Positions 20,755-38,123 of a stretch of DNA of 46,820 nt are shown piece after piece. The stretch's first letter is position 1. Every line of letters begins with the position of its first letter. The notes below the pieces were generated by a model. That model did no database searches. It saw only the letters and a list, made by a program, of their open reading frames with translations, and had not been told where the DNA came from. The position numbers and the translations under genes are program-made. This DNA is from Rhodospirillaceae bacterium (lineage in GTDB: Bacteria > Pseudomonadota > Alphaproteobacteria > UBA7985): contig PAFB01000123.1 in the NCBI GenBank assembly GCA_002700865.1, forward strand, positions 1-46,820. The letters are read 5' to 3'.

Positions 20755-22704
20755 TTATGCGGCGTAATCAGTCGCTTGGGCGGGACCCTCAACTTTGGGA
20801 GGCTCGCTGCCTGCTTTGGATTTCGCATTTGAGAGCTTTTTAAGCTTGCGTTGGATGTCGGACAGGTCCTTTTGCAGGCTTTCCAACCGACGCTCCTTAC
20901 GCCGAAGCTCTTTCTCAAACTTGGCGTCGCTCTGGTTCTCCAGAACCAGGCGACCCATGCGGATTTCATCTTCGATGGTGTAGGCCAGTTCGCGTTTGCG
21001 GGTGAAGGATTCCGCCAACCGCGCGCCAAAATCGTCGCGCTCGGCGGCGGAAGCTTCGTCACGCAGTTTACGGATGCCGGTTCGTACATCCTGAAATTCA
21101 GCCCAAAGCGCCTGGTCGGTATCACGACCAGCGCTGCCCGCTTGCTTCCAGTCCGCCATGACCTGATCAACATGCGTGTCGAGTTCTTTGACCGTTGCGC
21201 CAACCGGTGGGTGGCTCAAGCGGTCGAGCAGCGCGCGTTTGCGGAAACTGTTGCTTTCGCGGCTTTCATCCAAGGTCTCAAAAAACGCCTTTCGGGCCTC
21301 GTTCAGAGCCTTTCGCGCCGTGCGCAGGTCTGCGCTAATGCGGCTGCTTTCTTCCGCGCCAAGCCGTCCTAATCCTTTGAGCTGATTCATGGCCGCTTCC
21401 GCGCCCTCCATACCCGCCTTGGCAGCATCTTCGATCCCGCGCCATTCTTTCATGGTGGCAATTTCGGCGGGTAGCTGGGCGGCTTTGGCCAGCGACTGGC
21501 GCGCACTGTCTGTGAGCGACACGACCAGCGCTTGGCGGCGTTCAATCTCGCGATCGGCGCGCCAGTGCAAATCATCAACCCGGCGCCGCAGCTTGTCGGT
21601 CAGGTCGCGGTGCGCACCATCGGCGCGTCGCTCCAAAGCGCTCACGGACTTGGACAGCCCGCGCAGTGACCGCCCATCGGTGAGGGCTGCGCCATCTTCG
21701 GCCAGCCCGTCGCAAGTCGCCTCCAGCGTGCGTGCTTCCTGTTCCAGCGCCGTCCTCAGTGTCTGCGTTTCGCTTGCCAGCGCATAGATATCTCGTTCGA
21801 TTGCTGCTGACATTTGCTGGAATTTCTGGTTCATAGCCTCATCATCCGCGCCACCCGCCTTCAGCCACGCGGCCTGCAGTCCCGCTAACTGAGCCGCCAT
21901 ATTCGTGCGGTCCGGGCTGGCCATCAGGTCAACCAGTTCGTTGAGGACTGATTGCCGTTCGGCGATGAACACTTCCGGGTGATCTTCCGCCATTCGGGCG
22001 CGCTTGAGCACGGTTTCCCTTGCGGCGGCGTAGCGTCTTTCCAGAACAGTGTCGTGAACAGCACCCGCTGACCCGGATTGCGTCCATTCTTCGCCAAGCT
22101 GTTCGATTTGTGTGGACAGGCCGCTGGGTGCTGCGGTGCTGAGGGCTTCAAGGCGGGTGATGATGCCGCGTTTCAGGTCCCACTGCGCCTGTGTACGGGT
22201 TTCCAGGGCAGCAACCAGCGCGGCAAACCCGCTTTCCAGCGCCTCCAAATCGCCCAGTCCGGGCGCATCTCTCAGGTCGGATCTCAGTTGGGCGACGTGC
22301 GGCTCCACGTCAGCGACGGAGGCCTGAGGGTCCGCGATTTGTCCCTGCAGTGTCGCCAGCGTGCCTGCGCGCGTCTGGTACAAAGCGCGCGCCTCCGCCA
22401 AGGCGCCAGCCTTGGAGCCTTTCGACCCCCGCGCAACCACCCGCCCGCCGTCGGCGAGCCTGACATTCCCGGCTTTGTCGACGTAGGCCAGTTCCTGTTC
22501 CCGGGCAGCAGATGAAACGGCTTTTTTGCTGGAGGACTTCACGGGCGCTTTGGCAGATGCCTGCGCCGCGCGGCGGCGTTTCTCGCGGCGGCGCTGGTCG
22601 GCGCGGTCTTCGGCGGCGTGTGGGTTCTGACGCGGTGCCCAAAACCACCGAAAAACACCAACGATAGAGGATAAAATCCCCTTTTTTTGATCACGCGACT
22701 TCAC
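20755..22704 (-). CDS. DUF349-like helical-repeat protein with basic N-terminus
   Basis: A Trp-centred helical unit recurs: QAQWDLK, EEWTQSGSAG, LQAAWLKAGGAD..NQKFQ, MKEWRGIED, MADWKQAGSAGRDTDQALWAEFQ. This resembles DUF349 repeats. The N-terminal ~90 aa is Lys/Arg-rich after a short hydrophobic patch. Confidence 0.55.
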   Translation of the reverse strand: MKSRDQKKGILSSIVGVFRWFWAPRQNPHAAEDRADQRRREKRRRAAQASAKAPVKSSSKKAVSSAAREQELAYVDKAGNVRLADGGRVVARGSKGSKAGALAEARALYQTRAGTLATLQGQIADPQASVADVEPHVAQLRSDLRDAPGLGDLEALESGFAALVAALETRTQAQWDLKRGIITRLEALSTAAPSGLSTQIEQLGEEWTQSGSAGAVHDTVLERRYAAARETVLKRARMAEDHPEVFIAERQSVLNELVDLMASPDRTNMAAQLAGLQAAWLKAGGADDEAMNQKFQQMSAAIERDIYALASETQTLRTALEQEARTLEATCDGLAEDGAALTDGRSLRGLSKSVSALERRADGAHRDLTDKLRRRVDDLHWRADREIERRQALVVSLTDSARQSLAKAAQLPAEIATMKEWRGIEDAAKAGMEGAEAAMNQLKGLGRLGAEESSRISADLRTARKALNEARKAFFETLDESRESNSFRKRALLDRLSHPPVGATVKELDTHVDQVMADWKQAGSAGRDTDQALWAEFQDVRTGIRKLRDEASAAERDDFGARLAESFTRKRELAYTIEDEIRMGRLVLENQSDAKFEKELRRKERRLESLQKDLSDIQRKLKKLSNAKSKAGSEPPKVEGPAQATDYAA

Positions 22705-23977: not shown

Positions 23978-25072
23978 CTAACCCTCGCTGATGGCGAGCA
24001 GATACAGCACCAGACCGGCCAGTAGCAGCCCCAGCACGACCAGAACCGCAACCTTCCAAACCGACGTTGGCCGCTCCCCCTGAACTTCGCCAGTGCGTGC
24101 GTTAACGACGAAGCGGTAAACGCGATCATTCCATCGGAAGGCTGACAGGTAGGTTGGCAGCAGAACGTGCTTGAAGGTGGTATCGTCATAGCGTGTGTCC
24201 AGCCGGGTAATCCGCTGTCGGTCACCACCAATCGACCGCCTCACGTCGCGCTCGATTGCCGTCTGCATGATCTGTTTCGCTTCGACAAAGCCGTCGGTCA
24301 ACGGCACTTGATAGGCTTCGGAAATATAGCCGGCCAGATACTCATCGGCGTAGGGCCTTTGGTTTTCCAAGTCCCACGGCGTCAACCGTGACAGGTGCTG
24401 GCGCGGCAGTGAATTCGAGGAGGGGACCAGAACATCGTCAAACAACCGCGTCACCCGCCCACTTTTCGGCGTCCAGCGCACACGGGTTTCCGTGCGCCGG
24501 TTTTCCCCACTGCCGACGGTCACCGTGTAGGTGTCCCCCCGAAAACCCTGATACCGGGTGGCGGTATCCGCGTCGAAGGTCCAATGGGGCAGGTAGACGC
24601 CCTTGAACTGGTCATCAGCGGTGGTGTGGCGGCGCATGGCTTCAGGGGCAAGCCAAGAGCGCTTTAGCCAGCGTTTGGTCGCTGTCCGAGCCTCTTTGGC
24701 GGTTAACTTGAAGGGAAGCAGGGCATCGGGTGACAGTCGCCTGACCTGAACCGGATCAACCACAACTGGCACGGCACAAAACGGGCAGCGCCCGGCGGTC
24801 TCGTTTTTAGCCAGCGTGAACTCAGCCGCGCAACTGTCACATTTTACAGCTGCGACGTGCTCAACCGCGTGGCTGTTTTCCAAGTCACGCAAAGCGCTGT
24901 CGAGGTCGTTTTCAACCACCTCGATTTGTGTAATCTCAATCGGGTTTTCGTGACCACAATAGTCGCAAGCAAGCACCTCCATTCCCGGCTTGTAGGCCAG
25001 AAGCGCGCCGCAGTTCTCGCAAGGGTAATCCTTGCGGTCGAGGGTGGTGCCGTCCTGGGTGTCGGTATCCAT
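23978..25072 (-). CDS. Double zinc-ribbon protein with C-terminal TM anchor (YdjG-like?), function unknown
   Basis: Two CxxC..CxxC ribbons (CENCG..CDYCG and CDSCA..CPFCA), a ~230-aa soluble region (..GVYLPHWTFD..), and a terminal helix VAVLVVLGLLLAGLVLYLLAI. Confidence 0.7.
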   Translation of the reverse strand: MDTDTQDGTTLDRKDYPCENCGALLAYKPGMEVLACDYCGHENPIEITQIEVVENDLDSALRDLENSHAVEHVAAVKCDSCAAEFTLAKNETAGRCPFCAVPVVVDPVQVRRLSPDALLPFKLTAKEARTATKRWLKRSWLAPEAMRRHTTADDQFKGVYLPHWTFDADTATRYQGFRGDTYTVTVGSGENRRTETRVRWTPKSGRVTRLFDDVLVPSSNSLPRQHLSRLTPWDLENQRPYADEYLAGYISEAYQVPLTDGFVEAKQIMQTAIERDVRRSIGGDRQRITRLDTRYDDTTFKHVLLPTYLSAFRWNDRVYRFVVNARTGEVQGERPTSVWKVAVLVVLGLLLAGLVLYLLAISEG

Positions 25073-25147
25073 AAGAATGTCCCCGTTTATTCTGATGGTC
25101 TTGGATTACAGTCAGGCCCAACCGCAATGGCCGGTCCTCCATCGCTG

Positions 25148-25171
25148 AAAAAGGGGGCCCTTGCCCCCTTT
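25148..25171 (-). terminator. Intrinsic terminator after the SPFH-GYF gene
   Basis: The minus-strand RNA reads AAAGGGGGC-AAGG-GCCCCC-UUUUU, a GC stem plus U-tract, 10 nt after the stop at 25181. Confidence 0.65.
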
Positions 25172-25180
25172 AACCTGATC

Positions 25181-26302
25181 CTACCCCAAGAGCGGTGGCG
25201 GGCTTTTGGGAACCGGTGGCGGTGCCACACTGAACAGCCGCGCAATCGCGGGCACGTCTGCCGCCCGCGTCCACGCCGCCATCCCTGCGGACCAGACCAG
25301 AGCGTCTGGGTGCAGGCGTCCCGCGGCGACTTCGTCGTGCAAGGCGTGCCCCTGAAACGGCCCGGTTTGCGCGCCATTCACGGCAATGAAGTAAGATGGT
25401 TCGGAAGGCAGCGGCGGCGGCGGTGCTGCGGCTGCTGGGGATGCGGCACCGTTCGGTGAGAAGGCCGCGGCCATCTGTTGTGCCATGGCCAGACCCATTC
25501 CCATCCCCGCACCGGTTGCTGCAGCGCCGCCTGCTTCACCTTCAGCAGTCAATGATTCAGCCGCCTGATACTGCATGAACTTGTTCAAGTCCCCGATCAC
25601 CCCCATCGAGGAACGCTTATCCAGCGCTTCTTCGACATTGGGCGGGAGGGAGATGTTTTCGATCAGCAATTTTTTCAGATCCAACCCATAGGCGGCGAAA
25701 TCTGGCCCCACGAGGTTGGTCAGAAAGTCCCCCAATTCCATGTAGTTTGCGGCGAGGTCCAGCGCAGGAATCTTTGCCTTCCCTAAGCCGACCGCGACCC
25801 GGCTGACAATGAGATTGCGGAGCTGGTTGCTGACTTCATCAACCGAAAAACGGCCATCGGTTCCCACCACTTCGCGCAGAAATTCCACCGGGTCGGAAAC
25901 CCGGATTTCATAGGTGCCAAAGGCCCGCAAGCGGACAGGTCCAAACTCGGCATCGCGCAGCATGATCGGATTTTTCGTACCCCATTTGAGGTCGGAAAAC
26001 CGCTTGGTGTTGACGAAGTAAATCTCACATTTGAAAGGGCTGTTAAACCCGTATTTCCAAGCTTGAAGCGTGCTCAAAATTGGCAGGTTTGCTGTTTCCA
26101 ACTGCCACAGGCCCGGATCAAACACGTCGGCAACTTCGCCTTCGTTGACCATCACGGCCACCTGACCTTCGCGCACCGTCAGCATGGCACCATACTTGAT
26201 TTCATTGCCCTGCCGCTCGAACCGGTAGACCATGGTGTCGCTTGTGTCGTCCGTCCATTCAATGACGTCGATAAACTGACCGCCAAAAATTCCGAATGCC
26301 AT
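25181..26302 (-). CDS. SPFH/band-7 family protein (COG4260, YdjI / virion-core-protein-like) with a C-terminal GYF_2-like domain
   Basis: The N-terminus MAFGIFGGQFIDVIEW..VYRF....I..G..L.V.EGQ.AV is characteristic of the COG4260 SPFH group. An Ala/Gly/Pro linker follows. The C-terminus YFIAVNGAQTGPF..L......G.L.PDALVWSAGMAAWTRA..VP matches the GYF_2 pattern. GAGGAG RBS upstream. Confidence 0.8.
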   Translation of the reverse strand: MAFGIFGGQFIDVIEWTDDTSDTMVYRFERQGNEIKYGAMLTVREGQVAVMVNEGEVADVFDPGLWQLETANLPILSTLQAWKYGFNSPFKCEIYFVNTKRFSDLKWGTKNPIMLRDAEFGPVRLRAFGTYEIRVSDPVEFLREVVGTDGRFSVDEVSNQLRNLIVSRVAVGLGKAKIPALDLAANYMELGDFLTNLVGPDFAAYGLDLKKLLIENISLPPNVEEALDKRSSMGVIGDLNKFMQYQAAESLTAEGEAGGAAATGAGMGMGLAMAQQMAAAFSPNGAASPAAAAPPPPLPSEPSYFIAVNGAQTGPFQGHALHDEVAAGRLHPDALVWSAGMAAWTRAADVPAIARLFSVAPPPVPKSPPPLLG

Positions 26303-26355
26303 GGTTGGCGTTCTCCTCGTTTTTCTCTGCGATTGCCGCCGGCGTTGCGGGCGGC

Positions 26356-27525
26356 TTAGTTGGCGTCCACGGCTGACTGACCGGCTTCCAGCGCGGCGGC
26401 CGAGGCGGATTTCAAGACGGCTTTGAGGTCGTTTTCCATGGATTGCATGGCAACAACGGCCTCGGCGCGCTTTTTCTTGGCCTCATCGGCGATGGCCAGT
26501 GAGTCATTGATGGCACCGATCAGACTGTCATTAGCCTCCTGAACGGTTTCAATGTCAAAGACCCCCCGCTCGATCTGCTCGCGCACCTGAGCGTTTACAG
26601 CCTGCAGATTGTCAGCGTTGGCTTTCAGCAAGTCGTTGGTCAGGTCCTGCGCGGCTTCGACCGCCTGACCGGTCTTGGCCATATTGTGGATCGCGATAGC
26701 CTGGGCCAGCTGTTGCTGCCAAAGGGGCTTTGTGTTGACGACAATCGAGTTGATCTTGTTGACCAGCGCCTTGTCGTTTTCCTGCACGAGGCGGATCGAA
26801 GGCAGGGATTGCATGGTTACCTGCCGCGTCAGTTGCAGATCGTGAACCCGCCGTTCCAGATCATCGCGCGCTGAACGCAGGTCCCGAACGGCCTGCGCGT
26901 CCAGCATCTCACCCGTTTCTTCGGCTTTGGCCGCCAGAGCAGGGATCTCCTGCTCATCAAGCATCTTCAGCTTTTGCTCACCAGCGTCGATCCACAGCTC
27001 CAGATCGTGGAAATAATCGAGGTTGGCGTCATAGAGCTTATCGAGCTTTTCGATGTCAGTCAGCATGACAACTTTTTGCTTTTCGAGGTCGATTTCGATC
27101 TGGTCAACCTGACCTTGGACGGTATCGAACTTCGATTTGAACCGCACCAGATTGTCCTGCCCCATGCCAAACAGGCGCATGAAGAAATTTGGCTTCCGGT
27201 TCGGGTCCAGTGAGCGGGCGTCAAAGCCCTTGAGCGCTGAAACCATGTTGGTGAGTGCGTCGCCCGCCGGGCCAACATCCTTGTTCCGCATCCCTTCAAG
27301 CATGGTCGAGGAGACTTCCGTCAATTCCTGCTGTGCTTTTGAGCCAAAAAAGATGATTGAATTGGTGTCGGACATGTCCAGCTCAGACATGTATTTGTTG
27401 ACCATGGCTTGATTGGTCGGGTCGTCAAGATCGACCGGCACCAGCGCGGTGTCAGTTACTGCACCGTCGTTGGCAACATCGGGGAAAATGACTTCTGCAA
27501 CGGCGGTTTTGGTTTCTGTAGCCAT
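26356..27525 (-). CDS. telA: TelA-family toxic anion (tellurite) resistance protein
   Basis: ..YM..LD..DTNSIIFFGSKAQQEL...S..ML followed by a long helical body, typical of TelA/YaaN/YceH. I place the start at ATG 27525 (MATETKT..). The track's extension to 27684 overlaps the upstream gene and is low-complexity. Confidence 0.85.
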   Translation of the reverse strand: MATETKTAVAEVIFPDVANDGAVTDTALVPVDLDDPTNQAMVNKYMSELDMSDTNSIIFFGSKAQQELTEVSSTMLEGMRNKDVGPAGDALTNMVSALKGFDARSLDPNRKPNFFMRLFGMGQDNLVRFKSKFDTVQGQVDQIEIDLEKQKVVMLTDIEKLDKLYDANLDYFHDLELWIDAGEQKLKMLDEQEIPALAAKAEETGEMLDAQAVRDLRSARDDLERRVHDLQLTRQVTMQSLPSIRLVQENDKALVNKINSIVVNTKPLWQQQLAQAIAIHNMAKTGQAVEAAQDLTNDLLKANADNLQAVNAQVREQIERGVFDIETVQEANDSLIGAINDSLAIADEAKKKRAEAVVAMQSMENDLKAVLKSASAAALEAGQSAVDAN

Positions 27526-27568
27526 GGGAGGAATTCCTTCTTCGATCAGTTCAGGAGGCAGTGGCCGT

Positions 27569-28465
27569 TTACAGGCCTTCCCGCTCCATTTGTTTGCGTA
27601 GGACGTCGAGTTGGACTTCGAGGTCGATTGAGTCCTCGGCGTCCAATCGTTGTTTTTGCTCGTCGAATGCTTTTTCAATGACATCGAGCGTGGCGTTGAA
27701 ATCAGCGCGATGGGCTTCGGCCCTGCCCGTGGCTTCTGCAGTGGCGAATTGCTGCACCGACGATGCCGCCCGTTCGAGATACGTGGCCATGAAGCGCCGG
27801 GCGCGGCGAATATCGCCGGGGTCTTCCAGTATCCCTTCCAACACGCCTTCGGCGTGGTCGGCGATGCGGCTTACTTGCGCTTGATCCCGTGAGGAGGCCA
27901 GCTGCGCGCCACTGGCCCGCATTTGCTTGACCAGACCGTGGGCCTGAGCGAGCTGCTTGCGCAGATCGCCTCTGTCAATCCCAGCGACCTTGTCGTTCAA
28001 ACCGCCACCGGCCATTGCTGCCCCGGTTGCCGTGAACAGTGCCAGCCAAAGGGCCACTCCTGCCAGAACAGCAACCCCAACCGCCTGTGCGATGCCCGCA
28101 GGCCCCGCAAGACAAGCGAGAAACAGCGCCGCCACTAGCGCGCCTGTACCCAATATCAGCAGGGGGAGGGGGCTGTTCAAAGCCGCTTCGACACCGCCTG
28201 AATGCCGAATTTTCAGCCCCCGGCGCACCAGACTGATACCGGCAAGCTGCAGGGCGATCGCGCCGAGCAGCGCGACGGCCGCATCAATATCCGCGCTTAT
28301 CGTCTCAACGATCAACGCCAGGATCATGGGGGGCAGCGGTAAAGCAATCAGCCAGCGCGTGACGCCGGGGCGCAGACGGGTCGATTTCTCGATCTGGTTC
28401 TCAGATGAAGCCGCGTACGCGCCAGCCTGCATCGATTTCGATGATACTCGTTTTCCCTGCGACAT
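27569..28465 (-). CDS. XpaC-like (5-bromo-4-chloroindolyl phosphate hydrolysis protein family, PF10112-like) membrane protein
   Basis: About 4 N-terminal TM helices. The cytoplasmic helical region contains ILEDPGDIRRARRFMATYLERA..SV..F, which resembles the XpaC family signature. Adjacency to telA matches the xpaC-yaaN pairing known in Bacillus. Confidence 0.55.
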   Translation of the reverse strand: MSQGKRVSSKSMQAGAYAASSENQIEKSTRLRPGVTRWLIALPLPPMILALIVETISADIDAAVALLGAIALQLAGISLVRRGLKIRHSGGVEAALNSPLPLLILGTGALVAALFLACLAGPAGIAQAVGVAVLAGVALWLALFTATGAAMAGGGLNDKVAGIDRGDLRKQLAQAHGLVKQMRASGAQLASSRDQAQVSRIADHAEGVLEGILEDPGDIRRARRFMATYLERAASSVQQFATAEATGRAEAHRADFNATLDVIEKAFDEQKQRLDAEDSIDLEVQLDVLRKQMEREGL

Positions 28466-28468
28466 GGC

Positions 28469-28564
28469 TTAAATGACCGTCCCACTCATGGCAGCAAAAG
28501 CAGTAACGACGGCAAGGATCACGTACACAGCCAGACCAAGGTTTCGAAGTGTTGGCGAGTTCAT
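28469..28564 (-). CDS. Unannotated 31-aa single-TM peptide (MNSPTLRNLGLAVYVILAVVTAFAAMSGTVI)
   Basis: My own translation; it falls below the ORF-track length cutoff. GGGGAAGG lies 7 nt upstream of the ATG. Its TAA stop ends 3 nt before the XpaC-like ATG. Confidence 0.5.
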   Translation of the reverse strand: MNSPTLRNLGLAVYVILAVVTAFAAMSGTVI

Positions 28565-28665
28565 AGGCAAGCCTTCCCCAAAAGATGAAGTGGTCCCCGT
28601 ATTCACTCTTTTTACATCGGAATTGTTAAGGCTAAATGCAAGAGATCTCTCTCACTTTTGTCCGT

Positions 28666-30832: not shown

Positions 30833-31594
30833 TTAGTGTTCGATGCGCAAGGCGGCGAGATCGGCGCGGAAGAAGGCTTCGCAGTATTCGATAGCTGCGC
30901 CTTTGGCAGGCTGGCCCGACCCCTGCGGTGAGGGGTCTTCAATATTCAGTGCGATGGTATGAAGAACGGCAACCCGGCCTTGCGCGGTGTCATGCCCGCT
31001 TGCGCTGCCGCCCAAGTGTCGGGCTATCGGCCCCTCAACCCAATCAGCGGTGACTTCAGTCCACAAACGGCGGTAACCCGGAACGCCGCAAGCCTGCAGG
31101 CTCGCGGTGACTGACAGCGTATCGGCAAAGGCCGTCCGCAATTCTGGCAGGCGGGCGGCGGGGAAGGAACTGCGGGTGTAGGCAAAGGGCTGACCATCGA
31201 TTTCCGCCAGCGTTTCAATCTGGTGAACAGACGCGCCAGAACGCAGTTTGAGGGTGCGGGCAATGTGGGGCTCAGCCGGGCGGGTTTCAGAAACGACAAT
31301 CCGCTTTTCCCCCTTGCGCTGAAGCCCTGCGACGTTGTCCGTAAACCGGGTGCGCTGCCCCACGCGGTAGTTCAGACGCGGTTGAACAACCTCAGCCCCT
31401 GCGCCTTGACGCACGCGGATCAAACCCTCGGCCGCCAGTTCAGCCATGGCGCGTCGCACCGTGTGTCGGTTCACAGCAAAGCGAGTGGAGAGCTGCGCCT
31501 CAGTGGGGAGGCGCTGACCGATGGGATATCGGCCCGTGCGAATATCGTCTGTGAGTTGATCTCTTATCTGCTGCCAAACGTAGCGGGTCGCCAT
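30833..31594 (-). CDS. phnF: Phosphonate metabolism transcriptional regulator PhnF (GntR/HutC family)
   Basis: N-terminal GntR wHTH (..G.RLPTEAQLS..F.VNRHTVRRA...L..EGLI...QG.G) plus a UTRA-like C-terminus. Divergent from phnG. Confidence 0.85.
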   Translation of the reverse strand: MATRYVWQQIRDQLTDDIRTGRYPIGQRLPTEAQLSTRFAVNRHTVRRAMAELAAEGLIRVRQGAGAEVVQPRLNYRVGQRTRFTDNVAGLQRKGEKRIVVSETRPAEPHIARTLKLRSGASVHQIETLAEIDGQPFAYTRSSFPAARLPELRTAFADTLSVTASLQACGVPGYRRLWTEVTADWVEGPIARHLGGSASGHDTAQGRVAVLHTIALNIEDPSPQGSGQPAKGAAIEYCEAFFRADLAALRIEH

Positions 31595-31638
31595 GTTGTA
31601 GCCTCGGCTGCTGGTTCACGTCTGAAAATGTGCGCGGT

Positions 31639-31656
31639 TCGTCACACGGCTGTCAA
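31639..31656 (+). promoter_or_regulatory. Candidate Pho box (TCGTCAC-ACGG-CTGTCAA) upstream of phnG
   Basis: Two 7-bp direct repeats with a 4-bp spacer, matching the CTGTCAT-N4-CTGTCAT PhoB consensus at 5/7 and 6/7 positions. Oriented toward phnG and about 80 nt upstream of its start. Confidence 0.4.
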
Positions 31657-31685
31657 AAATAACCCTTAACGATTTAGGGGTTATT

Positions 31686-31703
31686 TGTCTATACAAATAG
31701 ACA
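31686..31703. promoter_or_regulatory. Candidate PhnF (HutC-type) operator: inverted repeat TGTCTAT-ACAA-ATAGACA containing GTcTAtAC
   Basis: Perfect 7-bp arms, read directly. It contains the GT-N-TA-N-AC core typical of HutC-subfamily operators. Located between the candidate Pho box and the phnG start. Confidence 0.5.
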
Positions 31704-31735
31704 TATGAACGGCAACCATAAAGGAAGCACCAACG

Positions 31736-32197
31736 GTGAAACAGGCGTCTGACTCCTCGGCAAGACAGGAATGGATGAGCGTTCTCGCCAAAGCCCAGCC
31801 CGACAGGCTACTCGCGCTTTGGCAAGCAACCTCGCGTGGCGAAGAACAAAGACTGACATGGCTGCGCGCGCCGGAAATCGGGACGGTGATGGTGCAGGGA
31901 CGCGCGGGCGGGACAGGCGAAGCCTTTAACCTCGGTGAAGTCAGTGTCACGCGCTGCTCAGTGCAAATCGATGCATGGGTTGGACACGCTTACGTGCAGG
32001 GTCGCGACAAGAACAAGGCGAGGCTCGCCGCCCTGTGTGACGCGCTGCTGCAGGCTGAACCGGAGACTGCCAGCCGCATCAACACAGGCATCATCGCCCC
32101 CCTTCAGGCTGAGGCTGCGAAACGGCGCGCGCAGACAGCGGCTAAAGCCGACGCCACCAAGGTAGAGTTTTACACGCTGGTTCGGGGAGAAGAATGA
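31736..32197 (+). CDS. phnG: C-P lyase system protein PhnG
   Basis: ..R..WM.VLA.A....L...W......LR.PE.G.VMV.GR.GG.G..FNLGE..VTRC.V is the PhnG pattern. First gene of the phnGHIJKLM run. GTG start. Confidence 0.85.
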   Translation: MKQASDSSARQEWMSVLAKAQPDRLLALWQATSRGEEQRLTWLRAPEIGTVMVQGRAGGTGEAFNLGEVSVTRCSVQIDAWVGHAYVQGRDKNKARLAALCDALLQAEPETASRINTGIIAPLQAEAAKRRAQTAAKADATKVEFYTLVRGEE

Positions 32198-32868
32198 TGA
32201 GCAAAGCCCTAAACGCACCGCCAACCTCAGCTCCGTCCGCCACCACTCCCACCGCCTTTCCCGCCGCCTCTCCCACCACCTCTCCCACCGCCTCTCTTGA
32301 TGCATTGAGCGGTGGTTTTGCGGATGCGAGTTTTGACAGCGCGCACGCCTTTCGCACGCTGCTGGATGTCATGGCCCGTCCCGGTTTGATTGGTCGCTTG
32401 ATGCAGGCCAAAGCTCCGGCGCCAGCTTCACCGTCACTGGCCACGGCGCTGTTAACCCTTTGCGACGGCACAACCCCGCTTTTCCTCGCGCCAAGCCACG
32501 CAACCCCGGCGCTGAAAGACTGGATCGCGTTTCACATGGGTGCGCCGCTGACTGCGGATCCGGCAGAAGCTGTCTTCGCGGTGGGGTCGTGGGACAGCCT
32601 TGGTGGGATCGAGCGCTTTGCCGTGGGAAGCGATGACTACCCCGACCGCTCGACCACTGTGCTGGTTGAGACTGACTGGTTGGCCAACGAAGGGCTTCGC
32701 CTGACCGGGCCGGGGATCGCCACGAGCGCCTTCCTGAACCTGCCGCAATCGTGGCTGCCGGCGCTGCAGAGCAATCACGCGCTGTATCCGCAGGGGGTGG
32801 ACTGCTTTTTCTGCTGTGAGGAGGCGATTGCTGCCCTGCCGCGCTCCACGCGTGTGGAGGCAGGCTGA
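32194..32868 (+). CDS. phnH: C-P lyase system protein PhnH (with low-complexity Pro/Thr/Ser N-terminal extension)
   Basis: After ~35 low-complexity residues: GFAD...D...AFR.LLD.MARPG, the PhnH signature. Overlaps the phnG stop and is coupled to phnI (TGATG). Confidence 0.85.
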   Translation: MMSKALNAPPTSAPSATTPTAFPAASPTTSPTASLDALSGGFADASFDSAHAFRTLLDVMARPGLIGRLMQAKAPAPASPSLATALLTLCDGTTPLFLAPSHATPALKDWIAFHMGAPLTADPAEAVFAVGSWDSLGGIERFAVGSDDYPDRSTTVLVETDWLANEGLRLTGPGIATSAFLNLPQSWLPALQSNHALYPQGVDCFFCCEEAIAALPRSTRVEAG

Positions 32869-33986
32869 TGTATGTCGCAGTAAAGGGTGGCGAAACCGCC
32901 ATCGACAACGCTCACCGTTGGTTGGCAGACCTTCGCCGGGGTGACAGAGAACTGGCGCCGCTGCAAACGGAACAGGTGAGCGAGCAGCTGACGCTGGCGA
33001 CCAGCCGCGTTATGGCTGAGGGTGCCATCTATGATCGCGAATTGGCGGCGCTGGCGATCAAGCAGGCTCGGGGCGATTTGATTGAAGCGATCTTCTTGCT
33101 GCGCGCCTATCGAACCACATTACCGCGGTTCGGGACCAGCTTGCCCATCGATACCGGCGCAATGGCCTGCGTGCGTAGGATTTCCGCCACGTTCAAGGAC
33201 GTGCCAGGCGGACAGGTGCTGGGACCGACCTTTGACTACACCCACCGCCTGCTCGATTTCGCGCTGGCCGCCGATGGTGAAGTGCCGGCGGCGCTTAAGG
33301 CTGAACAGCAGAACCAAGCCACCACGCCACCGAGTCAAAAGCCCAGGATCAGCGATTTCCTTGACGAAGAAGGTCTGCTTCAGCCCGAGCCCAGGGGCAG
33401 TGAAACACCACCGGACCTGACGCGAGAGCCGGTCGCCTTTCCAGCCGGTCGCGCGCTGCGGCTGCAGGCGCTGACCCGTTCAGACGAAGGGTTTCTGCTG
33501 GGTCTGGCTTACTCGACCCAACGGGGTTACGCCCGGAATCATCCCTTTGTCGGGGAATTGCGCATTGGTCTGGTCGCCGTAGAGATGGCAATCCCGGAAC
33601 TGGGTTTTTCCATTGAAATCGCCGAAATCGAAGTCAGTGAGTGCGAAACGGTCAACCAGTTTCAAGGGTCAAAGACGCAACCTGCGCAATTCACCCGCGG
33701 TTATGGACTGGTATTCGGGCAAGCCGAGCGCAAGGCGATCAGCATGGCGCTTTGTGACCGGGCGCTGCGGTGGGAGGAGTTGGGTGAAGACAATCTCGGC
33801 GCACCAGCGCAGGACGAGGAGTTCGTCATTATGCATGGCGACAACATTCAAGCGACGGGCTTTGTCGAGCACATCAAACTGCCCCACTACGTCGATTTTC
33901 AGTCTGAAGCCGAACTCGTTCGCCGTCTCCGCCGCATGCACGCTGACAATCAAGACCATCAGCAAACCCAAGGGGATGACTCATGA
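32868..33986 (+). CDS. phnI: C-P lyase system protein PhnI
   Basis: MYVAVKGGE.AI N-terminus and AIKQARGD motif. Confidence 0.9.
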   Translation: MYVAVKGGETAIDNAHRWLADLRRGDRELAPLQTEQVSEQLTLATSRVMAEGAIYDRELAALAIKQARGDLIEAIFLLRAYRTTLPRFGTSLPIDTGAMACVRRISATFKDVPGGQVLGPTFDYTHRLLDFALAADGEVPAALKAEQQNQATTPPSQKPRISDFLDEEGLLQPEPRGSETPPDLTREPVAFPAGRALRLQALTRSDEGFLLGLAYSTQRGYARNHPFVGELRIGLVAVEMAIPELGFSIEIAEIEVSECETVNQFQGSKTQPAQFTRGYGLVFGQAERKAISMALCDRALRWEELGEDNLGAPAQDEEFVIMHGDNIQATGFVEHIKLPHYVDFQSEAELVRRLRRMHADNQDHQQTQGDDS

Positions 33987-34852
33987 GCGCTTTGGTCCGC
34001 GAACACTATAATTTTGCTTATCTGGATGAGCATACCAAGCGCATGATCCGACGCGCCCTGCTCAAAGGCGTTGCCATACCGGGCTACCAGGTTCCCTTCG
34101 CCAGCCGTGAAATGCCCATGCCCTATGGGTGGGGGACCGGCGGGGTGCAGGTCTCGGCAGCTTGTATGGTGCCGGAAGACCGGGTCAAGGTGATCGATCA
34201 GGGTGCGGATGACACCACCAACGCAATTTCAATCCGAAAGTTCTTTGAGCGCACGGCCGGGGTAACCGTGACGGAGCGCACAAAGGAAGCAACCCTGATC
34301 CAAACCCGCCACCGCATCCCCGAACAACCGCTGTCGGAGGATCAGATCCTCGTCTACCAAGTGCCGATCCCCGAGCCTTTACGCTTCCTTGAGCCGCGCG
34401 AGACGGAGACACGGAAGATGCATGCGCTCAGTGAATACGGCCTGATGCATGTCAAACTCTACGAAGACATCAGCCAGCACGGCGAGATTGCGACAAGCTA
34501 TGCTTATCCGGCTGAGGTCAACGGCAGGCACGTCTTTGATCCGTCTCCCATTCCGAAGTTCGACAATCCCAAGCTCGACAACTCGCCGGCCTTGCAGCTT
34601 TTCGGCGCGGGACGGGAGCAGCGGATATACGCGGTGCCGCCCTATACCCGGGTCCGCAGCCTGGACTTCGAGGATTACCCTTTTGTCGCCGCTCGGGCCG
34701 AGCACAGGTGTGCTCTGTGCGGTTCGACCCATACCTATCTCGACGAGGTCATCATTGATGATGAAGGGGGGCGGATGTTTGTCTGCTCGGACACCGATTA
34801 CTGTAACGAACAGCAACGAGCCAATGCGGAGGCGGAACGCGATGCAGGATGA
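33983..34852 (+). CDS. phnJ: Alpha-D-ribose 1-methylphosphonate 5-phosphate C-P lyase PhnJ
   Basis: YNFAYLDE.TKR.IRRA.LK..AIPGYQVPF.SREMP.PYGWGTGG and a C-terminal Cys cluster (CALCGS...C..). Confidence 0.92.
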   Translation: MSALVREHYNFAYLDEHTKRMIRRALLKGVAIPGYQVPFASREMPMPYGWGTGGVQVSAACMVPEDRVKVIDQGADDTTNAISIRKFFERTAGVTVTERTKEATLIQTRHRIPEQPLSEDQILVYQVPIPEPLRFLEPRETETRKMHALSEYGLMHVKLYEDISQHGEIATSYAYPAEVNGRHVFDPSPIPKFDNPKLDNSPALQLFGAGREQRIYAVPPYTRVRSLDFEDYPFVAARAEHRCALCGSTHTYLDEVIIDDEGGRMFVCSDTDYCNEQQRANAEAERDAG

Positions 34853-35618
34853 ACCGCTATTCTCAGCCTCTGCGGTGAGCAAGTCCTATGGCACCCACGT
34901 CGGTTGTCGTGATGTCAGCTTTGACCTCTGGCCGGGCGAAGTCCTTGGTATTGTCGGTGAAAGTGGATCAGGAAAGTCCACGCTGCTGAACTGTATCAGC
35001 GGCCAGCTCGACCCCAGTGAGGGGGACGTGCTCTACCGCACCCAAGACGATGGAATGAAAAGCACGCAGGCCATGAGCGAACCGGAATTGCGAAAGTTGC
35101 GCCGGACGGACTGGGCTTTTGTCCATCAGAACCCTCGGGACGGTCTCCGCTTGAGCGTGTCCGCAGGGGGGAATGTGGGTGAGCGGCTTATGGCTGTTGG
35201 CGCGCGGCACTATGGTGATATCCGGCGAAGCGCCAGCGAATGGTTGGAGCGGGTTGAAATCAGCACGGCGCGCATCGACGATCGCCCAAGCACCTTTTCA
35301 GGTGGCATGCAACAGCGCCTGCAAATCGCCCGTAATCTTGTGACGCATCCTCGATTAATCTTCATGGACGAGCCCACTGGCGGCCTCGATGTTTCGGTGC
35401 AGGCGCGTTTGCTCGACCTGTTGCGGAGCCTGGTGCGAGAGCTTGGACTGAGCGCCATCATCGTCACGCACGACCTTGCGGTTGTTCGCTTGCTCGCTGA
35501 CCGCCTGATGGTCATGAAGGACGGCTCTGTGGTCGAGCAGGGGCTGACGGATCAGGTGCTGGACGACCCACAGCACGCTTACACCCAACTTCTTGTCAGC
35601 TCGGTGCTCATGCCATGA
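34842..35618 (+). CDS. phnK: C-P lyase system ATP-binding protein PhnK
   Basis: ABC ATPase with Walker A GESGSGKST, signature FSGGMQQR and Walker B LIFMDEP. I place the start at ATG 34842 (MQDEPLF..). The track's ORF from 34449 is an out-of-frame overlap of phnJ. Confidence 0.88.
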   Translation: MQDEPLFSASAVSKSYGTHVGCRDVSFDLWPGEVLGIVGESGSGKSTLLNCISGQLDPSEGDVLYRTQDDGMKSTQAMSEPELRKLRRTDWAFVHQNPRDGLRLSVSAGGNVGERLMAVGARHYGDIRRSASEWLERVEISTARIDDRPSTFSGGMQQRLQIARNLVTHPRLIFMDEPTGGLDVSVQARLLDLLRSLVRELGLSAIIVTHDLAVVRLLADRLMVMKDGSVVEQGLTDQVLDDPQHAYTQLLVSSVLMP

Positions 35619-36289
35619 TCCATGTCGAAAATGTCTCCAAAACCTTTACTCTTCACAATCAGCACGGTGCCGTGATTGAAGTGGTCTCTCGCGCTAATCT
35701 GGACGTGCATTCAGGTGAATGCGTGGCCTTGACCGGTGTCTCGGGCAGCGGAAAATCAACGCTGATGCGTATGATATTCGGCAACTATCTTGCCGCCAGT
35801 GGTCAGATTACGGTGGACGGCGTGCGCATTGTGGGCGCCAGCCCTCGCGAGATTATTGCCTTGCGACGGCATAGGCTCGGCTATGTCAGCCAATTCCTGC
35901 GGGTGGTGCCCCGCGTTTCCACGCTGGATGTGGTCTCTGAGCCCTTGTTGCGCGTGGGTACCTCTGAGGTTGAAGCCCATGGCGGGGCAAAAGACCTGCT
36001 GGCCCGCTTGCGTATTCCCGAGCCGCTATGGTCGCTCTCGCCCCTGACTTTTTCAGGAGGTGAGCAGCAACGGGTCAACATCGCACGCGGTTTCGCACAC
36101 CATTATCCGGTGCTGCTGGTGGACGAGCCGACGGCAAGCCTCGACGGCACCAACCGAGACACCGTGCTTACGCTTATCGAAGAGGCCAAGGCGCGCGGTG
36201 CCGCCATTCTTGGCATCTTCCATGATGCCGACGCCCGAGCGCGGGTCTGCGACCGGGAAATTGATGTAAGTGGATTCAAAACACCATGA
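35615..36289 (+). CDS. phnL: C-P lyase system ATP-binding protein PhnL
   Basis: ABC ATPase with GVSGSGKST, FSGGEQQR and LLVDEPT. Position after phnK, with an ATGA overlap. Confidence 0.88.
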   Translation: MIHVENVSKTFTLHNQHGAVIEVVSRANLDVHSGECVALTGVSGSGKSTLMRMIFGNYLAASGQITVDGVRIVGASPREIIALRRHRLGYVSQFLRVVPRVSTLDVVSEPLLRVGTSEVEAHGGAKDLLARLRIPEPLWSLSPLTFSGGEQQRVNIARGFAHHYPVLLVDEPTASLDGTNRDTVLTLIEEAKARGAAILGIFHDADARARVCDREIDVSGFKTP

Positions 36290-37443
36290 GTAGCAGCGCA
36301 AACACCATCGTTCTGACCAACGCGAAGCTGGTGCTGGAAGACGAGATCGTTGATGGAACCATTGTCTTCGATGCGTCTGGTTCTATCGCGCAGATCGACA
36401 CCGGGTCGAGCGCCCTGCCTTCCGCGGTGGACTGCGAAGGCGATTTCGTGATGCCAGGGTTGGTTGAGCTTCATACAGACAATGTGGAACGCCATTTTGT
36501 CCCACGCCCCCGCGCCTACTGGCCCAATGCCATTGCAGCGGTAATGGCGCACGACAGCGAGATTGCCGGCGCAGGCATTACTACCGTGTATGACGCGCTG
36601 AGCGTTGGCGACTATGATGGCGAAAACAGCCCACGCCGGGAGCTGTTTGCCGAGATGGTTGAAGCCACCCGACGGGCAAGCGCGCTTGGCATTTTTCGCG
36701 TGGAACATCGCCTCCACCTGCGCTGTGAACTGAGTGACCCGCGATTGATGGAGACGCTGGAACCTGTTGCGATGGCCCACAAGGCGGATATCGTCAGCCT
36801 CATGGACCACACCCCCGGCCAGCGCCAGTGGCGGGATGTGGACGCACTGCGCACCTACATGAGCCGAACAGGTCTTTCGCCCCAGGAAGTCGAGCGCACC
36901 ATTGGGCTGAGGATCGAGAAGGGCAACACCAGCACGCCTGAAAATTGGCGCGCTGTTCTGGACCTGTTTGCCGAGCAGAAAGTGACTCTGGCGACCCACG
37001 ACGACACCACGGTCGACGATATAGATCATAGCGCAGATGCCGGCATTGCGATCAGTGAGTTTCCCTGCTCGCTGGCCGCTGCGCAGCGGGCCCATGAACG
37101 CGGCATGACCACCATTGGCGGCGCGCCGAATGTGGTGCGTGGCGGCAGTCATTCAGGCAATGTTGCCATGGAGGAGCTGGCGCGCAACGGTGTCCTCGAT
37201 GCCCTGAGTTCAGACTACGTCCCCAGTGCCCTGCTGCAGGCCCCCTTTCTGATGGCAGAGCGCCTGAACATGCCCTTGCATGACACACTCAAGACGGTGA
37301 CACAAAACCCAGCTCGCATGGTCGGACTGTTTGATCGCGGGGTTCTGGAGCCGGGTAAGCGGGCGGATGTCCTGCGCGTGCGGGTGGTTGAAAGCACGCC
37401 CTTTGTCCGGGCAACTTTTGTTCAGGGTCAGCGGGTGTCCTGA
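36286..37443 (+). CDS. phnM: Alpha-D-ribose 1-methylphosphonate 5-triphosphate diphosphatase PhnM (amidohydrolase fold)
   Basis: PGLVELHTDN metal motif, [24 protein letters not shown] and LSSDYVP. Confidence 0.88.
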   Translation: MSSSANTIVLTNAKLVLEDEIVDGTIVFDASGSIAQIDTGSSALPSAVDCEGDFVMPGLVELHTDNVERHFVPRPRAYWPNAIAAVMAHDSEIAGAGITTVYDALSVGDYDGENSPRRELFAEMVEATRRASALGIFRVEHRLHLRCELSDPRLMETLEPVAMAHKADIVSLMDHTPGQRQWRDVDALRTYMSRTGLSPQEVERTIGLRIEKGNTSTPENWRAVLDLFAEQKVTLATHDDTTVDDIDHSADAGIAISEFPCSLAAAQRAHERGMTTIGGAPNVVRGGSHSGNVAMEELARNGVLDALSSDYVPSALLQAPFLMAERLNMPLHDTLKTVTQNPARMVGLFDRGVLEPGKRADVLRVRVVESTPFVRATFVQGQRVS

Positions 37444-38123
37444 TGTCAAAACCACGATACGCCCTGTATTTTTCACCAGCAGACGAAAGCGCTTTGGCCG
37501 CTTTTGGCGAGCAGGCATTGAAGCGGCGACCAGATGGGCGCGACAGTGATCTTGGCCCGGTGTTCGGTGCGCCGGATGGTTCGGATCATCGTCAACGTGC
37601 TGCTTTCCCGCGCCACTACGGCTTTCATGCAACGCTAAAAGCCCCCTTTGAGTTGGCTAAAGGAGCCGACGAGACCCACCTGAAAGCGGCGTTGGAGCGA
37701 TTTTGTGAGCAGCACAGGCCGGTCGATCTGCCGGGTTTGGGGGTGCAGCAGGTGCAGGAGAGGTTTCTGGCTCTGACGTGCCGCCGGCACGATGCCTTGC
37801 AGGATCTGGCCTTCGCCGTCGTCAGTGACTTCGAGAGCTACCGCGCCCCGCTCAGCGCCAGTGACCGCGCGCGACGAAAGCCTGAGCAGCTGTCAACGGT
37901 TGAACGGATGAACCTTGATCGCTTCGGTTATCCCTTCGTCGGGGAAGCCTTTGCTTTTCACATGACCCTGTCCGGGTCGGCTGAGCCATCTTTTCTGGCC
38001 TTTCTCGAAGACCTGTTCGCCCAGACGGTCAATCGCCCCGAGCGGCTGGATCATCTGGGGCTGTTCTATCAGCCAGACCGTGACTCAGTCTTTGTCCGGA
38101 TTGCGCATCACCGCCTTGGCTAG
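37443..38123 (+). CDS. DUF1045 / 2H-phosphoesterase-like putative phosphonate metabolism protein
   Basis: Two H-x-T-x motifs (FHATLKAPF and FHMTLSG), as in the 2H phosphoesterase superfamily. Translationally coupled to phnM (TGATG). Confidence 0.7.
   Translation: MSKPRYALYFSPADESALAAFGEQALKRRPDGRDSDLGPVFGAPDGSDHRQRAAFPRHYGFHATLKAPFELAKGADETHLKAALERFCEQHRPVDLPGLGVQQVQERFLALTCRRHDALQDLAFAVVSDFESYRAPLSASDRARRKPEQLSTVERMNLDRFGYPFVGEAFAFHMTLSGSAEPSFLAFLEDLFAQTVNRPERLDHLGLFYQPDRDSVFVRIAHHRLG

Follow-up and report, generated by a model that had tools for sequence, protein, structure and literature searches.

A joined XpaC-TelA and SPFH-zinc-ribbon gene cluster with a coupled micropeptide gene in Alpha- and Gammaproteobacteria

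The window analysed here, a stretch of 46,820 nucleotides (nt) of contig PAFB01000123.1 (GCA_002700865.1) from a Rhodospirillaceae bacterium, carries at 23978-28564 a minus-strand cluster of five open reading frames (ORFs) that encode, in order of reading, a 31-amino-acid (aa) peptide with a single transmembrane (TM) segment, an XpaC-like membrane protein, TelA, an SPFH protein ending in a GYF domain, and a tail-anchored zinc-ribbon protein, hereafter ZnR. The cluster joins two pairs of genes, XpaC-TelA and SPFH-ZnR, and the joined arrangement recurs elsewhere with its gene order and strand unchanged. We read it as an operon conserved on the chromosomes of marine Alpha- and Gammaproteobacteria, in which two membrane modules form one transcription unit, its most likely task being stress sensing at, or maintenance of, the inner membrane without PspA, and we give this reading a probability of about 0.5. 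That the two modules are also coupled, physically or functionally, is in our judgement an even bet. To judge from sequence comparison, the link between TelA/XpaC and SPFH/ZnR is real and long-lived, frequent but not obligatory.

Both dyads are already known. In the literature that could be searched we met no account of the fusion of the two, long maintained in Proteobacteria, of the micropeptide gene coupled to XpaC, of a GYF-tailed SPFH protein as the standard partner of ZnR, or of the size of the ZnR family together with its lack of a solved structural relative. No relevant paper came up for TelA/XpaC combined with SPFH, with Pfam/COG accessions, or with Rhodobacter, Paracoccus or roseobacters, and no named or characterised operon of this composition, which the initial annotation had allowed for, appeared in that literature (the Ter-system comparative-genomics survey, Anantharaman et al. 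2012, lies outside its coverage). TelA and XpaC occur widely and affect how well cells withstand daptomycin, nisin and tellurite, by a mechanism that is not established, and the pair of a Band_7_1 SPFH and a YdjG-type protein has so far been studied only in Bacillus subtilis, in connection with PspA. The cluster connects TelA, a protein little understood so far, with an established scaffold of membrane stress, and a joint operon long maintained in abundant marine bacteria, including tractable Paracoccus and roseobacters, offers a testable hypothesis of one PspA-free membrane-maintenance pathway.

Conservation of the joined cluster

The five ORFs share one orientation, are separated by gaps of 3, 43, 53 and 108 nt, and lie exactly where the initial annotation had placed them. 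Gene neighbourhoods were surveyed around the best 80 of at least 600 ZnR matches on reference contigs with one genome per species, and were scored with the window proteins (surveyed loci bear L numbers below). Genes for XpaC, TelA, SPFH and ZnR occur together at 45 of these 80 loci, a figure that is no unbiased frequency because the loci are those most similar to the window ZnR; 44 of the 45 have the order and strand of the window, and the other, L072, has all four genes with XpaC and TelA downstream on the opposite strand. Such recurrence rules out chance juxtaposition, one outcome the initial annotation had envisaged for a comparison of neighbourhoods. Three further loci have TelA-SPFH-ZnR (two with limited upstream DNA, the third with a split TelA frame and no match to XpaC), 20 have only SPFH-ZnR, at least six of them with too little upstream DNA to judge, and 12 have ZnR alone, about eight as true orphans. 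A check of the ZnR-only loci for a hidden SPFH gene found none, and their neighbours are unrelated (HypD/HypE, cytochrome b561, P450).

The four-gene state is found in many genera of Rhodobacterales, in Geminicoccus, Granulosicoccaceae and Thiothrix/Thiotrichaceae, and in unclassified Gammaproteobacteria. As the initial annotation supposed in speaking of two normally separate dyads, each pair also occurs alone: SPFH-ZnR in Planctomycetota, Bacteroidota, Acidobacteriota, Kiritimatiellota, Undibacterium, Inquilinus, Methylotuvimicrobium and one Rhodospirillaceae metagenome-assembled genome, as well as in Tsukamurella, Comamonas and Vibrio (six phyla overall), and XpaC-TelA in Lamprobacter, Staphylococcus aureus and Clostridium butyricum. 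Flanking genes differ completely between lineages, being CitMHS and SBP genes in the clade of the window, genes for pseudouridine synthase, Dtd and PfkB in Rhodobacterales, and a TPMT gene in Granulosicoccus; the cluster thus persists as a unit. In a neighbour-joining tree of ZnR, the four-gene state occupies one large proteobacterial clade, where it is kept to about 45% ZnR identity, and the dyad-only phyla fall outside that clade; across Rhodobacterales the cluster is single-copy and stably inherited.

Thirty-three loci, mainly of Rhodobacterales, carry between TelA and SPFH a same-strand gene for a DUF2927 (PF11150) lipoprotein, for example at L079:4786-5757 and, on Paracoccus pFER4, at L101:7062-8090. 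The Paracoccus version has a 4-nt overlap between the TelA and DUF2927 frames, and its SPFH and ZnR genes abut. Neither the window nor the gammaproteobacterial versions have the insert.

Several observations weigh against a joint operon with a single task. The ZnR tree fits a single ancient joining, so that the association amounts to one evolutionary observation and not several, and within the same tree there are secondary break-ups in Competibacteraceae, in Methylotuvimicrobium and in a Roseicyclus/Gymnodinialimonas subclade. Two close relatives of the window TelA (57-60% identity) sit in XpaC-TelA pairs with no SPFH-ZnR within 7 kb, and TelA occurs on 329 plasmid records versus 12 for ZnR (tblastn for ZnR), Paracoccus being the only organism common to the two tallies, with five records each. 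The selection of loci by similarity to the window ZnR and the eight or so orphaned ZnR genes belong on the same side, and the genes inserted in Rhodobacterales, together with a terminator-like hairpin inside the cluster (described below), show that the unit can be split.

It is conceivable, then, that XpaC-TelA and SPFH-ZnR are independent membrane-stress modules, neighbours since one ancestral proteobacterium and adjacent by inertia or shared regulation, each working as it does when alone and neither acting on the other. The occurrence of both pairs alone in many lineages, the one joining and several later separations in the ZnR tree, and the presence of DUF2927, other extra genes and the hairpin between parts of the cluster are all as this explanation would have them. 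However, gene order and strand have been kept to about 45% ZnR identity, in two classes and with all flanks changed, which is unusual for neutral synteny, and reading frames overlap inside modules as well as between them, TelA/DUF2927 in Paracoccus being one case. We regard independence, the strongest of the rival readings, as possible and lean somewhat against it.

The peptide gene and the other products

The first gene of the cluster (28469-28564 including the stop, minus strand) encodes MNSPTLRNLGLAVYVILAVVTAFAAMSGTVI, in which hydropathy places a TM segment at residues 9-27. It is a real, unannotated gene. The ENA gene calls over the cluster, made on a Tara Oceans scaffold that the window matches, comprise four genes, omitting the peptide and starting XpaC 11 codons further downstream, and most of the gene calls and deposited annotations examined likewise omit it. 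The ORF is intact in two relatives at ~82% identity, with ATG or TTG as the start, and the junction with XpaC, TAA/TAG-GCC-ATG, is invariant among the three. Codon changes relative to these relatives are synonymous in 14-16 cases and non-synonymous in 2-5, and the nucleotide differences number 16-18 at third positions and 1-6 at first or second positions. At distant loci, too, small ORFs directly 5' of XpaC follow the pattern M-x3-4-[LV][QR][KR][LIV][AG][FY] and then a hydrophobic stretch. A profile built from 12 such peptides was searched against 27,243 small stop-to-stop segments from both strands of 81 sequences; 38 segments matched at E <= 0.32, every one of them abutting a same-strand XpaC start, so that the peptide is found at 37 loci besides the window and nowhere else, the next match (E = 3) lying at an unrelated position. 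Because stop and start overlap or sit within 4 nt of each other at 35 of the 37 loci (spacing -4 to +4 nt), we take the peptide and XpaC to be translationally coupled. A matching ORF precedes XpaC in Lamprobacter, at a locus without SPFH-ZnR, and at another XpaC-TelA locus without SPFH-ZnR a 32-aa hydrophobic gene, in this case called, precedes XpaC; the peptide is therefore part of the XpaC-TelA module. Upstream of xpaC in S. aureus there is no space for a peptide gene.

The XpaC-like protein (27569-28465, minus strand, 298 aa) is a polytopic membrane protein with hydrophobic segments at residues 35-53, 56-74 and 102-120 and a C-terminal helical Halogen_Hydrol domain. It matches PF10112 at E = 2.9e-18 (67 bits, cut-off 29.8) over residues 117-289, corresponding to profile positions 4-191 of 191, and its upstream start is favoured over the ENA start because the resulting N-terminus, MSQGKRVSSKSM, is conserved in relatives. 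XpaC precedes TelA at the 45 four-gene loci of the survey, and the arrangement is the same in S. aureus and C. butyricum. This is the order of the Firmicutes xpaC-telA pairs (xpaC-yaaN; Listeria lmo1966-lmo1967), in which a YaaN-type TelA directly follows XpaC (PF10112) on one strand; the proteobacterial version differs in having a coupled gene for a peptide of about 30 aa upstream and SPFH-ZnR downstream, and the window XpaC in having some 115 residues N-terminal to the Pfam match, two hydrophobic segments among them.

TelA (26356-27525, minus strand, ATG at 27525, 389 aa) is of the YaaN type, soluble and all-helical. It matches PF05816 at E = 7e-104 (347.9 bits, cut-off 30) over profile positions 2-331 of 332, and shares 32-33% identity with the TelA proteins linked to XpaC in S. 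aureus and C. butyricum and 25-28% with the plasmid KlaB type. Its AlphaFold2 (AF2) model consists entirely of very long helices and is of moderate confidence (predicted local distance difference test score, pLDDT, 68). The initial annotation had suggested that TelA takes the place that PspA has in Firmicutes. A Foldseek search of the model against the PDB returned nothing significant; the best matches were generic helical bundles, with no PspA, Vipp1 or ESCRT-III in the top 50. As neither Pfam nor this fold search found any likeness to PspA, we dropped TelA as a PspA analogue by fold. An analogy of function, as distinct from one of sequence or fold, may exist. The jumbo Sinorhizobium phage Phosso (469 kb) carries a TelA that is 43% identical to that of the window and so much closer to it than the plasmid KlaB type; in the search of the phage collection, the Phosso record had no match to SPFH or ZnR.

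The SPFH protein (25181-26302, minus strand, 373 aa) is soluble and comprises a Band_7_1 domain (PF13421, E = 8e-96, 320 bits, cut-off 24, full profile), a low-complexity and proline-rich linker, and a C-terminal GYF_2 domain (PF14237, E = 5e-16), the last of which matches PDB entry 7z3c in a sequence search. The combination of Band_7_1 and GYF_2 recurs in 36 of the 36 sampled SPFH partners of this ZnR subfamily, always with invariant PPP or proline-rich stretches on both sides of GYF; it is thus a regularity among the sampled partners that the SPFH protein of the ZnR anchor has a GYF domain flanked in this way. The low-complexity region of the YdjI type is present, but in the window and in all 36 sampled partners GYF_2 stands in place of the C-terminal zinc finger. 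By lineage, the C-terminal module is GYF_2 in Proteobacteria, Planctomycetota, Bacteroidota, Tsukamurella and Vibrio, HTH_17 in Comamonas and a double zinc ribbon in Enterococcus; the SPFH genes compared for this module were L093:4766-5998, L096:4591-5691, L094:4667-5815 and L095:4897-5988. SPFH-NfeD operons (YqiK/YbbK-type, FloA-NfeD) similarly encode an SPFH scaffold beside a dedicated membrane partner, but the window SPFH is a Band_7_1 protein without a TM segment, its partner is a tail-anchored zinc-ribbon protein and not an NfeD OB-fold, and there is no NfeD nearby.

ZnR (23978-25072, minus strand, 364 aa) has two N-terminal zinc ribbons, a central beta-rich domain and a C-terminal TM segment at residues 343-361. 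No Pfam model scores above its cut-off; the zinc-ribbon matches are sub-threshold, and the central region, examined for a YpeB/NTF2-like fold, has one weak match to PepSY (E = 0.006). Across 54 sequences there are many invariant motifs, and of the cysteines in four CxxC pairs seven are invariant and one nearly so. The AF2 model (pLDDT 86; predicted template modelling score, pTM, 0.80) has the two ribbons, a beta-rich domain with helices, strands of about 30 residues (157-186, 193-217 and 285-314) and a terminal helix at 338-363. A whole-chain Foldseek search of this model against the PDB found nothing significant (best E = 0.03), and its weak matches to pore-forming toxins and secretins, which reflect long beta hairpins only, were set aside. 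The family is large, with more than 6,000 matches in 90% clusters and 10,554 representative clusters at 50% identity, 2,806 of them at E <= 1e-30, and its members are often misnamed 'primosomal protein N'' or 'RNA polymerase subunit RPC12' / 'RPC12/RpoP', and 'ATP-binding protein' in the case of Enterococcus relatives. ZnR thus stands for a family of more than 10,000 clusters that has no Pfam model and whose confidently predicted fold has no solved relative. Searching the PDB by sequence turned up no relative of TelA, XpaC, the SPFH domain or the ZnR body, and an NCBIfam scan of the cluster proteins gave nothing useful.

Comparison with Enterococcus gallinarum suggests what ZnR is. Its homologue there lies between an SPFH gene (Band_7_1 with a C-terminal double zinc ribbon) and a TPM_phosphatase gene, and aligns end-to-end with the window protein, across both ribbons, the central motifs and the TM segment (BLASTP E = 4e-30, 24% identity). 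The Enterococcus SPFH-ZnR-TPM set agrees with what has been published on YdjI, YdjG and YdjH of B. subtilis, where YdjG has two N-terminal zinc ribbons, a central domain and a C-terminal TM segment. On the strength of this full-length alignment and of the agreement between the two sets, ZnR can be filed, through its Enterococcus homologue, as YdjG/SamG-like by sequence. The N-terminus of YdjG as encoded by a primer, MIISYKCPNC, resembles MDVITHKCPNC of Enterococcus, and PF08271 is found in both; when the Enterococcus protein served as the query, all the relatives listed were from Enterococcus and Tetragenococcus. The window thus shares with the B. subtilis pspA-ydjGHI (pspA-samGHI) operon a Band_7_1 SPFH protein encoded beside a membrane protein of this architecture. 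Unlike that operon, it has no PspA and no TPM-domain YdjH/SamH within ~10 kb, its SPFH tail is a GYF_2 domain with proline-rich flanks and not a zinc finger, and SPFH precedes ZnR, joined to XpaC-TelA in a Gram-negative host.

Taken together, the profile searches agree with the families proposed in the initial annotation (PF10112, PF05816, and PF13421 with PF14237), ZnR being the partner family of Band_7_1 SPFH proteins, and the background given there (xpaC-yaaN, pspA-ydjGHI, links between TelA and Ter) matches published papers. Its description of all five products as membrane-associated or long-helical goes slightly too far. A hydropathy scan of the five proteins with a 19-residue window predicts one TM segment in the peptide, at least three in XpaC and one at the extreme C-terminus of ZnR, and finds no hydrophobic segment in TelA or SPFH; the SPFH protein, an alpha/beta domain without a TM segment, does not fit the description.

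Elements upstream of and within the cluster

The 108-nt gap between SPFH and ZnR does contain, as the initial annotation had noted, a hairpin resembling an intrinsic terminator, AAAGGGGGC-AAGG-GCCCCCTTTTT (25171-25148, minus strand), which folds at -15.9 kcal/mol on its own and is followed by a T-run. Equivalent hairpins with a T-run are present in L087 and L090 (~82% identity), with differing loop and stem bases. A consensus terminator scan missed the hairpin, probably because an extension of the stem by A-T pairs uses up the T-run. In the majority of the other lineages, the genes for SPFH and ZnR overlap or leave only a few nt between them. We infer that the hairpin attenuates transcription without fully separating the genes, which would lower expression of the anchor relative to the scaffold.

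Upstream of the peptide gene lies a promoter-like element (28613-28642, minus strand) composed of CTTGCA (28642-28637), 16 nt, and CCGATGTA (28620-28613). Its general form, CTTGCA-N16-CYGATKT, is common to the window and its relatives at ~82% identity, both boxes being conserved. At the same relative position 5' of the peptide ORF, eleven Rhodobacterales loci (L011, L036, L043, L046, L049, L050, L053, L057, L060, L066 and L071) have TTCCCCCTAG and, about 17 nt on, CCTAAGTTT; the TTCCCCCTAG 10-mer occurs 11 times in 1.17 Mb, each time at this position, while chance alone predicts about two occurrences on both strands. Other genera carry GCCTATATT there. The conserved upstream element is probably a promoter. 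An RpoH-type promoter was considered; RpoH promoters need TTG at -35, which fits CTTGCA of the window and not the TTCCCCC element of Rhodobacterales, and the RpoH regulon supplements mention neither TelA nor band 7.

Candidate functions and genomic context

Published phenotypes of XpaC-TelA involve mostly membrane- and cell-wall-active agents. In Listeria, telA affects nisin tolerance and its tellurite phenotype is modest; in Enterococcus faecium, deletion of xpaC lowers the daptomycin minimum inhibitory concentration and redistributes lipid microdomains only with telA intact, which implies that XpaC restrains TelA. In B. subtilis, the membrane foci of YdjI, a protein described as soluble, require YdjG and YdjH, and SamGHI has roles beyond PspA. 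A link among MVP, TelA and SPFH is said to have been drawn by Suprenant in 2007, and is given here as a lead.

We hypothesize that the peptide and XpaC act as a membrane receptor or regulator, holding and restraining TelA at the cytoplasmic face, while tail-anchored ZnR would recruit the soluble SPFH-GYF scaffold to the membrane, where the proline-rich stretches around GYF could drive self-association of SPFH. Made from one transcript, the two assemblies would come to share membrane sites, and the SPFH platform might then organise the membrane patch where TelA acts. All products may even belong to a single complex. A bolder version, which we find appealing but rather doubtful, makes the five products (six with DUF2927 in Rhodobacterales) one PspA-independent membrane-repair machine of Gram-negative bacteria, in which ZnR nucleates an SPFH-GYF cage at the cytoplasmic side of the inner membrane and, inside that patch, the micropeptide-XpaC receptor releases or polymerises TelA upon damage to the bilayer; if so, TelA, without a mechanism since the 1990s, would gain a role as the effector of an SPFH platform.

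The name and family membership of TelA and the modest tellurite phenotypes of Listeria telA bring to mind instead a determinant that protects against tellurite or further toxic oxyanions or metalloids, with SPFH-ZnR as an accessory. At eight Granulosicoccus loci, moreover, a gene for a thiopurine/metalloid S-methyltransferase (TPMT, PF05724, E = 5e-67; for example L026:3867-4565) lies directly upstream of peptide-XpaC-TelA, a neighbour that may link TelA to metalloid chemistry and that is confined to one genus-level clade. The partners expected of such a determinant are missing: among the called genes within ~10 kb of the cluster, Pfam annotation finds no TerB/C/D/Z, and the same interval has no TehA/B or Kla partners. 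It has no PspA_IM30 or NfeD either, bearing out the initial annotation, which had seen no PspA, TerB/C/D or NfeD. The Ter and kilA (klaA-klaB-telB) clusters share with the window a TelA-family protein, but at 25-28% identity for the KlaB type; the window cluster is chromosomal and not on a conjugative plasmid, and has no TerB/C/D/Z, KlaA or TelB. Together with the membrane- and wall-directed phenotypes of XpaC-TelA and the action of SPFH/YdjG homologues in membrane stress, this makes a resistance determinant unlikely.

Defence was a further suggestion of the initial annotation, and a membrane-acting system against phages or toxins would draw on the proposal in the literature that TelA and Ter components block entry of phages or xenobiotics, and on the presence of TelA on jumbo phages. 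Of the five proteins, four are without a match in PADLOC-DB v2 at E <= 0.1 and none matches a model at the default threshold, the single weak match being that of ZnR to PDC-S64 (E = 0.028, 11.4 bits). No annotated phage genome carries ZnR or SPFH, their matches being distant (<=30% identity) and in unannotated records, mostly short fragments, and TelA occurs alone on named large phages of the phage collection, as published. Neighbours in every lineage examined are housekeeping or metabolic genes with no variable-island context, and inheritance of the single-copy cluster across Rhodobacterales is stable. The one defence-like neighbourhood seen is on a plasmid of Vibrio coralliilyticus OCN008 (L095, 1-4010), where the SPFH-ZnR dyad adjoins opposite-strand genes for TIR-domain and TRAFs-binding-domain proteins. 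With no joint module on phages and with housekeeping neighbours, we consider a role in defence highly improbable, and return to membrane-stress sensing or maintenance as the preferred function.

Within ~10 kb of the cluster, the window contains a phn C-P lyase operon and genes for GntR, a CitMHS transporter, SBP, a DUF349 protein and a polysaccharide deacetylase; this is core chromosome, with nothing that points to a mobile or defence island. Just past the opposite-strand SBP gene, a minus-strand gene at 20755-22704 encodes a 649-aa protein with weak DUF349 matches, which has the same position in L087 and L090 and is not among the neighbours that recur at the more distant loci. Upstream of the CitMHS gene, positions 30833-38123 hold a GntR/UTRA regulator gene and a phnGHIJ-type C-P lyase operon with ABC ATPases, which appear unrelated to the cluster.

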